Source: a virus. Taken from it: a DNA stretch of 64,000 nucleotides. Position numbers: made by a program. Positions 6,001-12,000 of this stretch are shown in pieces (the stretch's first letter is position 1; each line of letters begins with the position of its first letter). The DNA is taken from positions 7,366-71,365 of IMG/VR virus record IMGVR_UViG_3300049207_000026. The stretch is one strand, 5' to 3'.

Positions 6001-9000
6001 CCGTCCGAGGTCTTGGACGACGAACCAGAGAACTGGGCCACCTTGCGCTTCTGGAAAGCGTTCAGAATGCCCATGGTCGGGTTGCCGCCGCTCGACCAAG
6101 CCAGCGCCAGGGCCGCTTCCACAAACGATTCCTGCAGCGCGCGCGCGGTGCCGTCGGTGTGGCCGTCCGAACCATCGCCGGTCGGCGCCGTCGCGTCAGC
6201 CGCTTTGCTGATGTTGGTCTTGATATAGGCCTGAACACCAGCACATTCCCGCGCCAGAGTGTCATTGCCGGCGACGTAGGCATTGTTTTCCAGCAAGGCC
6301 GCTTCAACGTCGCGCTTCAGTTCCTTCATGCGCTTTTGCATCTGGTACGCCATTTCGGAGCGACGACCGGCCTTCGATACGCCTTCCTGAGTACCGGTGA
6401 CGCGCGCCACCTTATCGGAGATCGCGCAGTAGTTGTAGATGCGGCTGGTAGCAGTCGATGCGTCGGTGGTGGCGTCGTCGCCCTCGATCACGAAGTTGGT
6501 GGCCGAGGCGGCAGCGAGCGCATCCTTCTGCCATTCGTGCTTGGTGCTGGTCGACTTGACCCGTTCCAAAGCGCTCAAGAATGGGGTTTCGGTGGGCGAA
6601 ATGTCGTAGATGATGTCGGACAGGTCTTCGCGGTTGCCCACTGCATCGTAGGACGAATAGGTATTGCTTGGCTGTGCCATGGTGAACTCCTAAGTTAGAC
6701 TTTTCCGGAAGCAAGGAGCAGAGCGACGACATCGCCTGTTTTGCCGCCAGAACTGCGAACATTGTTTTTGAGGGTGCGAACGTTGTGCTGCTCGCGGGAA
6801 ACCTGCTGCGCCTGGCCGGCCTTGACCAGCTTCGGCGCCGTGCGTACCTTGTTTTCGATGGCTGCTTTCGACCCCTGCAACTGGTCGTAAAGCATCGCCT
6901 TGCGCAATGCGGCCACAGCCGTGCTGCTCGATATGCCATTCAATTCAGCCTCGGAGAAGCCGTTTTTGGTGGCCCACGACTTGATGTCCAGCCGCTCCTT
7001 GTTGGCCACGGCCTCGTCCTTCCATTCAGGAATCAGCTCAGGAAGGCGCTGGCGCTCCTGATTCAAGTACGCTTGCGCTTGCTCGCTGTTCTGCGATTGC
7101 AGCGCGTGGCGCTCGTTCTGGCCCTGCTGGACGGCATAATCAAGCTGTTGCTTGCGCGACTGGAAATCGGCCAGCCGCGCCGAGTACTCGCCCGGGTCGT
7201 TCGTGCGCAAGTATTGCCAGTCCACGCTTTCAAAATCGCGCATCAGTTCCCTGTTGGCGATCTCTACGACCTGGTCCAGCTTGTTCAACCTTGCGGTTAC
7301 CGCCTGGCTTGCCTCTGCGGCCTGCTGCTGAATGGCTTGCTGCTGTGCCGCGACTTCGCGGGCTTTGTTGTCGACGTGTCCCTGCAATTGGTAGGACTTG
7401 AGCATGTCGGCGAGCTTGGCAGCACCGTCCTTGCCGTCGATCTTGGTCTTGATGACGGCGTTGCCGTCGGCATCCACGTCGAGCGTGGATTCATCAACAC
7501 CGAGATACTTGGCCAGGTCGGCAGTAGAAAGCTGCGGCTCGCCGTCATCGCCCTGGCCATCGCTGTCAGGTTGATCGGCGGTTGCGTCTGCATTCGTTTC
7601 AGGAGCGGCTTCGTCGTCGGCATCGCTGCCGGTGTCGGCTTGCTGCGCCTTTTGCTTCGGTTCTGGGGAATCGCCAGCAGACAGGAAACTCTCCAGTCGG
7701 TCGGTGATACTTGCGCCAGTGTCGCCACCGGTAGGGTTCTCAACGCTCATTTACCACTCCAAAAAAGAAGAAGCCCGCTCAGTGGCGGGCTTCGGTTAGA
7801 AAATTGGTGCTGCTATCGCCGGATCAGGCCGCGCAGGCCGCGCGCCTTCTCGAGCATGTCGATCTGGACCTCGGCCACGTCGCCATCCTCGACCACGCGC
7901 ACAATCTCGCGCTTGATGGCCGCCATCAGCTGCTTTGAGATCACGATGCGCTGGGCGCGCGCGGCGTCGTCCGGCGGGCAGGAAAGCGCCTGGTTGTCGA
8001 TGTATTCGCCCACTGCAGCAAACGCCTCCTTCAGCAGGGCGTTGTCCAGCAGGTGGCGCGCGTCATTGCCGCGAATGCGGCGGTCTTCAGGTGTGCTCAT
8101 AGGTTCAGGAGGATCAATTCAAGTTCGTCTTCTTCTTCCAGCTCCGCGACCATATCCAACAGGCGCGCGTACTGGGCCTCTGCAATCAGCTTTTCCATCT
8201 GGGGCCGCGCACCATCCGGCGCCGCTCGAACGACAGCGGGAATAGAGATGGACTCAGGCGACTTCACCAACTTAGGCGTTCGGCGCGGACCTTTGCCGAT
8301 TGGGGCTACCAGCGGTGGCTTGCCCTGCGCCTCGAAAGCCTGCGCCTCGAACGGGTCGTCAAAGACGAACAGCTCATCCTTGCGCCGCACGATGTACTTG
8401 CGTCGGTAGCGGCGGTGGTCAACTACTTCCTCTTCCTCGCTGGCGCCCTTTGGGAGAAATGTGCCGTACGCCTTGACGCCTATGCCGGCCTGGCCAAGGC
8501 GCGTCGTGCTCATGAAATCACGAACCCGTCGGTGTCGGCCGGCCCCTCAGTCAGCGCGACGACCGTCAGCGTCTTGGTCGCACCAACGTAATCGCTGATG
8601 CTTGTCGTCTGGCCAGCCAAAGCGCCGCTCGTGAAAGTGATCACGCGCCCGTTGTAGTGGTCGTCCGTCGCCTCGGTCAGATTCGTGACAATCGAGGTCG
8701 TCGTGCCGCCTGCCGCGCACGTGCTGACGACCAGGCCGAGCCCGCCACCTTCCAGATTGTCGGCCGCCGTCGTGCTTCCGCTGATCGCCAGCATGTCGGA
8801 TTTCATGTTGCCGCCTGCCGTCAGCGCTGCCGGGATTCTGGTCTGGATGTTGTCCAGGTCAGACTGAATCGTGGTCAGGGCGCCAGCGTTCGGCAGCACG
8901 TCGGTTACTGCCTTGATCGCTGTCGCCGTCGTCTGTAGCGCCCCTACCTCCGTGTCGATATACCCGGCGATGGCCGCCAGTTGCGTGTCGAGGTTCGCGC

Positions 9001-12000
9001 TTGCCAAGCCCACGGCGGTACGCACGCCAGCCGCGTCAAGCGTCGAAAGCCCAGCCTGCAACTCGGTCACGTAGTCCGCAGCCGTGGAGGCGGCAGTCTG
9101 CACGTTCGCCGCCATGGCGCCCACACTGGCATCCATACGTCCACCCACCAGCGCAGCAGGGATGCGAGCGTCAAGCGTCGTTCCGGTATCGACGAGGATC
9201 GCGGCCACATCGGCGCGCTGGGCGTCAGCATCAAGCCCGCCAGCATCGCTGATCACAAGCCCGCCAGCGGCGTCAGCGGCAGCATTTGGCAGCGCAGTGA
9301 GGCCCATGCGCACGCCGTCGTTCTGGTCGAACCCCACCAGCGTAAATTCCATCGGACTCGCGGCGGCTGCGCTGGTCGTAATCATCACGTAGACCACAGC
9401 GGACCATGCGCCACTTGCGAAAATCGCGTCTGCAATGTCAAGCCGATACAGGCCAGGCGCGAGCGTACTGCTAACCTCAAGCAGCCCCCAATCCGTGTGC
9501 GCAGTTGTCAGCGCGGCCAAATTGTTAAGCGACGACGTGTAATCCGTCACCGTCACATCATTGTCAGTCTCGACGCGTACACCGGATACCGTAAGGTTCG
9601 CAGCCACAAGACCAGTCTTCCCGCTTCCGTCCGTACTGGCCGGGTCCGGGATGAAAACCAGTGTCGTGTAATCCGTGAAGCCTACTTTGATTTGCTGCTT
9701 AGCCATTGAGGCCTCCGTTTAGGCCAGGGTGTCGAATCATGCCGCCACCGGCCCCGCCAGCGCCGTCGTCAAGCTTGTTCAGCAGCGGATAGACGCCATA
9801 AACATCGGTGTTGGTGTCCGTAAAGGCGCCACTGCCGTTATTTCTGGCGGTCGAATAGACGTTGTCATCCAAATAGCCCCCAAGCTCGGCAGCAGCGGCA
9901 TACGTGTGCTTCAGGACATTAACGCCACCGGTTGATGTTGCTTTGATCGCGACTGCGTATACCGTGTTTGCTGTCAGGTCCACGGGGGTGTCAAACAAAA
10001 TAACGCGCATTGAACTTGCGCCTTCGTTATCTCCGTCGCATGCCTGTGATGCGAGCGAAGACGGAGATCCAGAAGTGTGACTCGAATACAGTGCCGCCGT
10101 ATAGCTGTTAGCGTCAGCCGGTGTTGATCCCGGGTTGCAGTACGCCACAATGCCGTAGCACGTAGCCGGCACAGGAAGAGTAAAACGGTTGCCGCGTTCA
10201 TCCGGGTTCGTTGAATCAGAATAGGTCTGAAGCACTGCCGTGTACGCTCCTGCGAACCCAGGCATGTGAATGCTCACGCCACCGGCCGTGAAGAACCCAA
10301 GCGCATATCCGCAATTTGATGTGCTGACCTTCGTCCACCCACCAGCAGAATCCTTCGTTAGCGAATATGGAGATCCGATACCACCGTTAGTTCCAGTCGT
10401 GCGCAAGACCACGAAGTTACCAGCGAATCCACCAGTTGCCGTAAGCACGAGCGCGTACTTGGTGCCGATCACGAGCGCCGCAGTGCCGGCCAACCCTGTG
10501 CAGGTCTTGGTGCCGGTAGCAGCCACAGAAACGCTACCGGTCGCACTATTTGTGACCGGCGTTCCGCTTGGGGCGCCAGTCGTGGCGTCTAGCGTTTCAA
10601 TCGTTGCGTCAATCGTCCCTGTGCTCGTGTGCGACGTGCACCGGAATTTCACTGTATCAGGCGGCGTTGTGCTGGAAGCCTGGAACACAAACGCCAGTTT
10701 GTCAGCAGCGCCGTTGAACGTGAATGTCGAGTCCGATCCAAGCGTCGATGCAACAACGGACATGCCGGGCAAAAACGGCATATATGGCACTGGCGCATTG
10801 AGAGCAGCGGCAGTCATTAGGTCACCTTGATAAGTTGCGCGCCGCTCGTGAGCGACAGGGCCACCGTCTTGCCGATCATCGATTGCAGCGTTGCGAGAGT
10901 GAGCGTGTTGTCTTGCTTGTACGCGAGCGAGATCAGGAAGAACAGCAGTTGCTCATCGGTCAGGCCGTTCTCAAACGCTTGAATCGCCGCAGTCATCTCG
11001 GCTTTCGAGCTGAAGCGAAAACCCTGCTTGCTTGGCGTGCCGGGAAGAGAGGTGCTTGAGGCGGTAATGCCGACCGTGACCGCGCCGCCGCCGTTAACTA
11101 CGCTGTCGACTCGAAGGGTGCGCGCCATTACATACCCTCCTGCGGCATTGGTCTATTTCGAACAATTGCCCGTCCGTTCACAGAGGCGATCTTGCCGTCC
11201 GGCCCGTAATCGACCTGCACCGGCTTTGGCTCGCGCATTTCGGCCGCCAGCATTTCGTGGCGCTGCGCCAGGTCGCTTTGCGTGGCGAACACCTGCTCAA
11301 GCGACTGGTTCACGGTCTCGACCAGGGCAGCGAGCGATGCGCGCGGGCGCTGCTGGCCTTGCTCGTCCAGTTCCATTGGGTTGTCCTGGTCTGCCGCGTT
11401 CGCTGACATCGTGGCTGTCTTGAGCGATGCGGCGGCTTGCATTTCCTGCAGCACGATCTTGGTCTGCTGCTCGGTCTCTACCTTCCAGCGCTCAAACCCT
11501 TCCTTGCGCTGCGCTTCGATGGCGTCGTAGTGCGCTTTGACGCGCTCGATTTCGGCCTTCGCTGCGGCGTCAATCTCTGCCTTAGCCTGCTCGGCTTGCA
11601 GTTGCGCGGCGGTTTGCTGCGTCTTCACCTGTGCGTCCAACTGTTTGCCCTGCATGGTGAACTGCCCCTTGACCTGCTCAACCTCGACCATCGGGTTCAG
11701 CGGCGGCTTCTGATTTGCCATCTTCTGCTGGAACTCAGGACTGTCAGGCGACAGGGCGAAGCGGTCAGGCTGGTCAAAGCCCAGCGTCTCGGCCAGTTCC
11801 GCGAACATCGCATAGGCGTGCTTCGGATCGACCAGGCCGGCGGCGGCAAGCTTGTCTTGCAGCGACGACACCAGGAGTAGTTTCTGGCGCCGCTCCTCTT
11901 CGTTGCCGGTGCCCAGGCCGACCTTGGCCGTCATGTCCGTGCGATCCTGCCATTCCTGCGGGTTGATCTGCACCCACTTGCCGCGCATTTGGACCACGCG

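Follow-up and report, generated by a model that had tools for sequence, protein, structure and literature searches.

We analysed a 64,000-nucleotide window of the 74,109-base IMG/VR virus record IMGVR_UViG_3300049207_000026, in which two related temperate phage genomes lie in tandem and in the same orientation, each carrying in its late region the cassette of coupled fibre genes that is the subject of this study. The late genes of both are on the minus strand, and a tyrosine integrase (32703-33668) and a RecT-like gene (24997-25833) lie between the two late regions. Both phages are short-tailed and of the SU10 type in their head genes, as judged from their gene content: a portal protein (PF23899, E 1.6e-178, 595 bits) and a capsid protein (PF17236, 311 bits) of that type, a scaffold (phrog_3927), and podophage-type genes for an adaptor-like protein (phrog_2941), a virion protein (phrog_3287) and ejection-protein-like products. 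Tape measure, Dit and Tal are absent from the window phages.

A cassette of coupled genes between portal and scaffold

A sequence-only reading of this DNA had proposed a chain of four coupled genes at 8097-11128, between portal and scaffold, and its coordinates are confirmed, while coupling and position hold in both phages. The count of four was right as far as it went, but a fifth coupled gene precedes the scaffold. In each phage the five genes are placed after the portal and before the scaffold, which is followed by the capsid gene, and they are translationally coupled through overlapping junctions (TAATG, TAATG, ATGGCTAA, ATGA, ATGA).

The first cassette gene (10817-11128; minus strand, as are all cassette genes) encodes a small accessory protein of 103 residues. 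It is followed by the gene for a 372-residue protein (9699-10817), predicted to consist of two beta sandwiches resembling lectin, carbohydrate-binding-module or PHR domains and ending in a glycine linker and the C-terminal tag DDGAGGAGGGMIRHPGLNGGLNG (9702-9770; consensus GG-h-h-x-H-P-G-M-x-G-G-h-x-G, then a stop codon); we refer to it as the head protein of the proposed fibre. The fibre gene itself (8510-9706; 398 residues) encodes an immunoglobulin-like (Ig-like) N-domain (about residues 1-135; 9302-9706), a segment modelled at low confidence, long helices and, at the C-terminus, a small beta barrel (about residues 323-398; 8513-8740) that we class as type b and that is replaced in the second phage. 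By its conservation and its adjacency to the tagged gene, the N-domain is a candidate socket for the tag. Next come a 138-residue anchor candidate (8097-8513), composed of a swappable N-terminal peptide, a basic core, a helix and an acidic-hydrophobic C-terminus (EEEDELELILLNL), and a 95-residue protein (7813-8100) that is conserved with the scaffold module. The N-terminal peptide of the anchor candidate, MSTTRLGQAGIGVKAYGTFLPKG (8439-8513), is of what we call the TRLG type and is a putative plug for the type b fibre C-domain. The second phage encodes, in the same order, a small accessory protein of 79 residues (51866-52105), a head protein of 375 residues with the tag LIRHPGMNGGLNG (50742-51869), a 363-residue fibre that shares N-domain and shaft with the first but has a type a C-domain (...TLTVYADDDTTPAFTAAV...DPA; 49658-50749), a 130-residue anchor candidate with the N-peptide MWHPLFSFGDG and the same core (49263-49655), and a fifth coupled protein of 92 residues (48988-49266).

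Conservation between the two cassettes is confined to certain segments. The small first proteins have no similarity to each other. The head proteins are 35% identical over the only ~180 residues that can be aligned and 26% identical overall (MAFFT alignment); both end in the common 23 residues DDGAGGAGGG(M/L)IRHPG(L/M)NGGLNG, and within the window just these two genes bear the tag. Between the fibres, residues 1-272 are 88% identical and the remainder is unrelated; the 138- and 130-residue proteins are 63% identical from residues 26 and 17 on, respectively, with unrelated N-termini. Pairwise comparison thus upholds the earlier description of divergent beta-rich proteins with a shared C-terminal peptide, of a fibre C-domain that is exchanged between the phages and of a next gene whose N-peptide changes while its core is kept. 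The fibre N-domain, described as almost invariant, is indeed conserved, but the conserved part extends through the helical shaft to about residue 272. At the DNA level, two replaced blocks (8420-8946 and 9770-11124) stand within sequence that is about 80% identical, the level found across most of the structural region of the two phages. Because each co-varying pair lies on one contiguous piece of DNA, the two window genomes by themselves show linkage and say nothing on function, which calls for a wider comparison.

A C-terminal tag precedes the fibre N-domain on unrelated proteins

Our comparative set comprised about 200 metagenomic phage stretches, with 84 loci retrieved by the fibre N-domain. 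In about 65 of these 84, the adjoining upstream gene ends in GG-h-h-x-HPGM-x-GG-h-x-G followed by a stop codon; where the strict upstream motif is lacking, degenerate Gly/Met-rich ends stand in its place. Conversely, among 67 open reading frames ending in the motif at these loci, an N-domain gene is directly next in 63. For a reverse scan, IMG/VR was searched with a degenerate DNA pattern for the tag and stop codon, which gave 114 matches, 108 of them true ends of open reading frames and 103 of these with room downstream. An N-domain gene follows immediately in 92 of the 103, and in about seven further loci a second tagged protein intervenes before the fibre. The earlier expectation that a C-terminal HPG motif would be found upstream of this N-domain in other phages is therefore borne out from both directions.

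The tag is kept upstream of N-domains that are only 33-40% identical to that of the window, and it also occurs on upstream proteins without detectable kinship to the 372-residue protein. Of 124 tag carriers, 85 belong to the lectin-like family and 31 to a Beta_helix family (PF13229; 50.3 bits in L011 and 51.8 bits in L039, against a cut-off of 25.9), and eight are singletons; the window's own head proteins are two-sandwich proteins outside the Beta_helix family. Across 113 distinct proteins, the last 13 residues are on average 72% identical, with detectable similarity in only 29% of body pairs. The tag is thus portable across unrelated bodies, lectin-like as well as right-handed beta-helical, and the suggestion that lectin-like heads are interchangeable is consistent with this collection. 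Where related phages have different heads, DNA homology is lost over the head body and returns about 37 nucleotides before the stop codon, then runs through the N-domain at 84-86% identity as against 73-75% in the flanks. The window has the same pattern.

Some loci depart from a single tagged gene per fibre. In L030, L033 and L036 (~2814-5008), as in the seven or so reverse-scan loci just mentioned (e.g., L091, L144, L170), two tagged proteins precede one fibre gene; in such a tandem pair, a 370-residue protein ending ...HPGMAGGLRG is followed by a 360-residue protein that starts MAASTFPHWISL and ends ...VPQGMSGGING. One fibre may therefore be able to bear more than one kind of head. In addition, L061 (5804-7797) and likewise L065, L075, L040, L079 and L085 have a second module after the first fibre, made up of a 75-residue gene (MNLQNYR...) and a large beta-helix-like protein in which the N-domain profile finds a partial, internal match, which indicates that cassettes can stack in tandem.

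Conservation at a gene boundary might conceivably stem from a signal in the nucleic acid, for instance for translational coupling, for RNA folding or for a programmed frameshift by which the two proteins become fused. The stop codon of the head gene overlaps the fibre start (ATGGCTAA), and the glycine codons are GGN-rich, as a ribosome-binding site would be. The third codon positions of the invariant residues nevertheless vary freely: in 50 distinct loci, the invariant G, H and P positions of the tag use all synonymous codons (GGA/GGT/GGC/GGG, CAT/CAC and CCC/CCG/CCT/CCA, respectively), and many loci have abutting, non-overlapping genes with the peptide unchanged. Given this freedom at synonymous positions, the constraint is on the peptide, and selection on the tag acts on the peptide and not on RNA. 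We consider a nucleic-acid signal a most improbable cause of the conserved boundary; an RNA-level or frameshift origin of the tag itself is ruled out by the synonymous codon variation.

Another possibility is that the pattern stems from linkage combined with help in assembly, the protein encoded after the fibre being a fibre-specific chaperone and the tag/N-domain block a recombination anchor or a site that binds a third component. The N-peptide of such a chaperone would bind the C-domain while this is unfolded or folding, and would not persist as an anchor. That the replaced DNA blocks are contiguous would fit such a scheme. A recombination anchor, however, would hardly be conserved at the peptide level while synonymous positions change freely and N-domain identity is down to 33-40%, since DNA homology of use in recombination is long gone there; our data favour an attachment tag over a recombination anchor. 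We return below to the chaperone part of this explanation, which as a whole appears unlikely to us.

Predicted folds of the fibre and the head protein

A monomer model of the fibre (predicted local distance difference test, pLDDT, 82) has strands at residues 4-124, helices at 205-297 and strands again at 326-397, which correspond to the N-domain, the helical shaft and the barrel described above. Its more than 3000 homologues come from metagenomes and are all unnamed; they are strongly conserved in the first ~135 residues and highly variable in length, and 39 N-domain positions are invariant or nearly so among 47 sequences. The structural neighbours of the N-domain include BppU_N clusters (template modelling score, TM, 0.53-0.60 over ~96 residues) and the 80alpha baseplate chain 6v8i_BN (Z 7.0); in BFVD, BppU domain proteins are matched at E ~1e-3, with generic Ig-like folds scoring comparably. 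The C-terminal barrel resembles modules of Dit proteins and tailspikes (VIA Z 7.7-10.1). At the sequence level, the 398-residue fibre has no match to any Pfam family at E <= 0.01, BppU_N (PF10651) included, and none in PHROG.

The head protein model (pLDDT 87; predicted template modelling score 0.84) contains two sandwiches and a disordered tail at residues 354-372. Its fold neighbours (VIA Z 10-12) are the Cwp84 lectin-like domain, a phi812 baseplate protein, a PBCV-1 minor capsid protein and PHR domains. With respect to capsid decoration or head fibres, the sole fold match is to a chain from the capsid asymmetric unit of cyanophage A4 (9jwb_Z, Z 10.0), and the sandwich fold concerned is a common one. 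None of the solved decoration or head-fibre proteins (phi29 gp8.5, T4 Hoc, Pa223 gp52 type) is among the PDB sequence matches, and PDB searches with single sequences and profiles of both fibre and head protein returned nothing at E <= 1 beyond noise. Nearly all of the 73 head protein homologues are 330-390 residues long. The 372-residue protein scores 20.2 bits against DUF4082 (PF13313) over residues 200-317, below the Pfam cut-off of 28.4, and one homologue (P0144) has a precomputed PF13313 match, so that a distant relation to DUF4082 is possible; this sub-threshold match is the only one that the first four cassette genes have in Pfam or PHROG. We also considered peptidylglycine hydroxylase (PHM), a two-sandwich enzyme listed by Foldseek, in view of the terminal glycine of the tag, and rejected it on a TM of 0.16-0.20 and the absence of conserved His/Met sites in the alignment. 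Overall, the fold matches of fibre and head protein, which are based on models, do not establish family membership. A complex prediction with three copies of fibre residues 1-140 and head residues 338-372 gave an interaction score (ipSAE) of 0.00 in both runs, which had no controls, and is not used as evidence.

Almost all tagged genes are preceded by a gene for a protein of 75-103 residues, which varies in step with the type of head. Homologues of the 103-residue protein, which has no Pfam or PHROG match, accompany the matching head type in L006 and L008, as homologues of the 79-residue protein do in L007. Even where their overall identity is down to 25-30%, the lectin-like heads begin alike (M-[AT]-L-x-x-[LI]-x-x-P, position 14 being an invariant P), and this conserved N-terminus may represent a third joint, to the small upstream protein.

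Searches for named relatives were uninformative. In INPHARED, tblastn with the fibre, the head protein and two diverged N-domains found only two metagenome-assembled records (Manatee Spring); a scan of the GTDB species genomes yielded four loci, all in metagenome-assembled genomes; and a cluster look-up of NCBI-sourced homologues gave no informative names.

Fibre C-domains co-vary with the N-terminal peptide of the next protein

The second proposed joint was examined on 116 distinct fibre ends. Fibre C-domains were typed by end motifs, since single-linkage BLAST merged most C-terminal ends through the low-complexity shaft. In counts that are not adjusted for shared ancestry, type c C-domains are followed by a MF..YF..RYF peptide in 11 of 11 cases (3 of 105 elsewhere), type b by a TRLG peptide in five of six (1 of 110 elsewhere) and type a by a MAAGFRS..W peptide in 10 of 23 (0 of 93 elsewhere). 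The co-variation of C-domain type with downstream peptide type that had been predicted is therefore seen well beyond the window. The pairing cases span diverged fibres and different downstream proteins (L024, L201, L202, L203): lengths and N-domain sequences vary widely among the paired fibres, the downstream proteins are dissimilar beyond the peptide, and the type b C-domain recurs with its matching peptide in L024, L201 and L202.

Reading the association from the peptide side gives a similar picture. Two TRLG proteins that we looked up in their contigs come after fibres that match the first fibre of the window in their final ~50 residues, and one of these TRLG proteins is in a quite different phage with a polyvalent protein. 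A MFGHRYYG protein follows a fibre with another end (...DADGNRTAVTRDLT), and the same end precedes MF..YF..RYF peptides in the first locus set. The TRLGQxGxGxxxYGTFxPK peptide is found in one to three tandem copies at the N-termini of otherwise different proteins, and other N-peptides of the family are also repetitive (RYFG three times, AWG four times, AFD three times). In L026 (9201-9871), two more small genes start with aromatic, Gly-rich peptides (VAFQQVGFQSSGFQDVG... and MGFVGGIVGGRFFEGDEYF...), and several proteins of this phage may use the same kind of N-terminal plug.

An anchor candidate with a conserved core

What might the protein after the fibre do? An exhaustive HMMER search with the 138-residue protein returned 19 cluster representatives, all unnamed, in two groups. 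Members of one share the core, that is, a basic hairpin (RRYxVRRxDxLxVFD), a Lys-rich linker, a helix and an acidic-hydrophobic end (EEEDExELLLLxL); those of the other have only the TRLG N-peptide in common with it. The 138-residue protein has no match in the protein atlas, and neither it nor its 130-residue counterpart matches Pfam, PHROG or any known chaperone family. Close relatives keep the order portal, slot, 138-residue core, 95-residue gene, scaffold, capsid protein and adaptor, and homologues of the fifth gene come after the anchor gene in L201, L203, L208 and the contig of P0200. What precedes the core can be quite different: in P0199 (L208 6001-7476), the core is fused to a 386-residue LamG-like part and repeats, with no N-domain fibre there, and in the P0200 contig (JGI) an 842-residue SASA esterase (sialate O-acetylesterase family) is followed by a 220-residue protein in which a short peptide and an Ig-like part precede the core. 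The portal-to-scaffold slot is a hot spot for host-recognition modules. Judged from these sequences, the 138-residue core looks like a conserved anchor whose preceding material is exchangeable and adhesin-like, and the earlier proposal of an anchor core is to that extent sustained by close relatives in which the core is retained with other adhesin-like modules.

The chaperone explanation has to be weighed against this. The genes for the chaperones Tfa of lambda, G of P2, U of Mu and gp38 of T4 come immediately after that of the fibre whose C-terminus the chaperone matches, as in the pairs stf-tfa of lambda, S-U of Mu and g37-g38 of T4. The 138- and 130-residue proteins share this gene order and this match to the fibre C-domain, and they belong to downstream proteins that are small, highly charged and unlike typical structural proteins. 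They are not, however, similar to any chaperone family, and their specificity resides in a short N-peptide; with its 10-25 residues, and frequently duplicated or triplicated in tandem, such a peptide would better suit a plug in a threefold socket. Furthermore, the core is joined in relatives to domains of lectin-like or Ig-like character, an arrangement that is sensible in an anchor but not in a chaperone. With the core constant and the preceding parts swapped, an anchor fits better than a chaperone.

Position of the module and a separate tail fibre

In each window phage, a separate tail-fibre-like gene is encoded directly after the adaptor-like gene. The two (1897-3192, 431 residues, and 42874-44355, 493 residues; both minus strand) have only the first ~50 residues in common (phrog_6465); their C-terminal parts match different tail-fibre PHROGs, and a DNA homology gap at 1670-2710 is consistent with a swapped receptor-binding part. 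The second phage has, amid its tail and ejection genes, a 158-residue acetyltransferase-like protein (39865-40341, minus strand; phrog_651 / phrog_1249). One block (18209-19821 versus 59596-61210) is 96% identical between the two phages, the remainder being at about 80%, which suggests either recent exchange between the phages or an assembly that joined two co-resident prophages.

In the comparative set, the module is found directly after the portal in four portal lineages: SU10 (the window), P22 (L007, L083), Mu (L062, L081) and HK97 (L207). In other groups it stands after a SU10_adaptor-like gene or after protease and capsid genes, and it precedes the terminase in two loci. The terminase large subunit of L206 (12459-14966) contains an intein (PF14890).

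These positions bear on whether the docking chain, if real, is an ordinary tail appendage, namely a branched side fibre in the region of portal, adaptor or nozzle. In a large set of loci the module comes after the SU10_adaptor-like gene, which is the position of the SU10 long tail fibre (PMC9509320). The fibre C-terminal barrel resembles Dit and tailspike modules, the neighbours of the N-domain include the baseplate domain BppU_N, and beta-helix heads are typical of tailspikes. On the other hand, the cassette of the window lineage, together with its conserved anchor, sits within the head module, from portal to scaffold; the adaptor-like gene is immediately followed by one for a distinct tail fibre whose N-terminus is conserved; and the module directly follows the portal in four unrelated portal lineages. 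We therefore hold an ordinary tail appendage to be possible, if somewhat doubtful. With the cassette in the head gene cluster and a canonical tail fibre encoded after the adaptor, the device would probably be a second one besides the tail fibre, close to portal or capsid. The label "head-linked" given to it earlier finds support in the suggestive portal-to-scaffold neighbourhood, but this neighbourhood varies among loci. For the window lineage itself, gene order weakly suggests a location on the virion head, and a portal- or capsid-proximal second adhesion device is our guess from that order.

Discussion

From the comparative genomics set out above, we think it on balance probable that the cassette encodes a virion adhesion fibre built from separate proteins through two short peptide-to-domain joints. 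At the first joint, a head protein with a flexible Gly linker and the 13-residue tag hhxHPGMxGGhxG would be held by the Ig-like N-domain of the fibre that is encoded next. The head would have an interchangeable carbohydrate-binding or carbohydrate-cutting role, fulfilled by a two-sandwich lectin-like protein here and by a right-handed beta-helix in other phages. At the second, the C-terminal domain of the fibre would be held by the short N-peptide of the following gene's product, a peptide in which aromatic residues and Gly abound and which frequently occurs as two or three repeats. The conserved core of the 138-residue protein would finally tie the assembly to the particle in the window lineage. 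Recombination would then exchange the parts lying between joints, and such swapping would give rise to the patterned conservation.

The order outward from the particle would be anchor core, N-peptide with C-domain, fibre, N-domain with tag, and head. Since the tag/N-domain pair is the same across particle types, the conserved partner of the N-domain is most simply the tag, and attachment to the particle would be at the variable far end. Physical binding, stoichiometry, polarity and virion position of the cassette proteins are all, we infer, as this arrangement would have them.

Several observations weigh against a fibre docked in this way. Type a C-domains have a matching peptide in fewer than half of the cases, just 10 of 23, and the second window phage's own MWHPLFSFGDG fits none of the three peptide classes. 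The co-variation counts ignore relatedness among the sequences, and adjacent genes are co-inherited, so that some association is expected without contact. The loci with two tagged proteins per fibre (L030, L033, L036) are a misfit to a simple rule of one tag per next gene. The fibre was modelled as a monomer, and its trimeric state is an assumption. The genomic position of the module varies, so that a location on the virion head cannot be generalised. Finally, both binding and presence in the virion are argued from comparative genomics.

How does this proposal relate to described systems? The assertion that no described system has this layout was too strong, because the BppU/BppL/BppA tripod and a hub loop of phage Pa223 share its logic (PMC4742702; 10.1101/2025.06.11.659172). 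The closest analogy is the lactococcal TP901-1/Tuc2009 tripod, where the C-terminal 100 residues of BppU hold the N-terminal part (~30 residues) of BppL, encoded next, and where the BppU of Tuc2009 recruits the carbohydrate-binding BppA through an additional 25 residues at its C-terminus (PMC4742702). BppU likewise has a beta-sandwich N-domain that a trimeric helical linker connects to a C-terminal domain, the N-domain of the window fibre neighbours BppU_N clusters, and the co-variation of C-domain and next-gene N-peptide is consistent with a C-domain that would hold the N-terminus of the next protein. Yet the window fibre lacks a PF10651 match, and the window phages are not Dit/Tal-bearing siphophages of Gram-positive bacteria. 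Moreover, the recruiting peptide of the cassette is the C-terminus of a head protein encoded upstream, whereas in the tripod it is on the adaptor; the gene following that of the fibre seems to encode an anchor, whereas in the tripod it encodes the receptor-binding protein; and the fibre gene lies between portal and scaffold instead of after Dit and Tal.

In Pa223, a hub loop (gp59) with three spaced Trp residues forms a pseudo-threefold plug in the base of a trimeric fibre (gp60) (10.1101/2025.06.11.659172). The N-peptides of the cassettes similarly are aromatic motifs repeated about three times (RYFG, AWG, AFD, TRLG...YGTF). There, however, the plug is a tail hub loop and the socket the N-terminal base of the fibre, whereas the proposed counterparts here are the N-terminus of a small protein and a fibre C-domain, and the Pa223 and cassette proteins have no sequence relation.

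Branched receptor-binding systems (G7C gp63.1/gp66, CBA120 TSP1-4 and the K1-5 adaptor) place interchangeable depolymerase or lectin heads on a conserved attachment module; recombination boundaries are at that module, and the heads carry folded N-terminal anchor domains of ~100-300 residues. The heads of the cassette differ in carrying only a 13-residue C-terminal tag after a Gly linker. The Tfa-type chaperones, for their part, are not homologous to the protein after the fibre, whose core, moreover, is fused to adhesin-like domains in relatives. As for SU10, whose type the window phages share in portal, capsid protein, adaptor-like protein and scaffold, only gp7 and gp8 lie between its portal (gp6) and capsid protein (gp9), and it has no described head fibre (PMC9509320). 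In the window phages, the cassette is an insertion into this portal-to-capsid slot. What is new, then, are the protein families, a 13-residue C-terminal head tag in place of a folded N-terminal anchor domain, the spread of this tag across lineages and a dedicated anchor in the head module.

The most far-reaching version of the proposal, which we put forward only tentatively, combines these elements. A portable 13-residue HPGM tag, an Ig-like socket of about 130 residues and plug-and-barrel joints would let at least four portal lineages exchange heads without changing folded attachment domains and, in SU10-like temperate phages, would mount the assembly on the head/portal vertex through a dedicated anchor as a second adhesion organ. 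Provided that the joints are real, the tag would make receptor-binding heads recognisable in phage genomes from metagenomes, in which they now lack annotation, and the joints would explain why recombination boundaries fall inside genes instead of between them. Tag and socket would also constitute a very small natural docking pair for studying and building fibre chimeras in laboratory phage-host systems. The proposal further raises the question of a second adhesion device near the head in short-tailed temperate phages. If the joints are real, a large and unannotated group of environmental phages would follow a simple rule, readable from sequence, for building and exchanging the parts with which they recognise their hosts.

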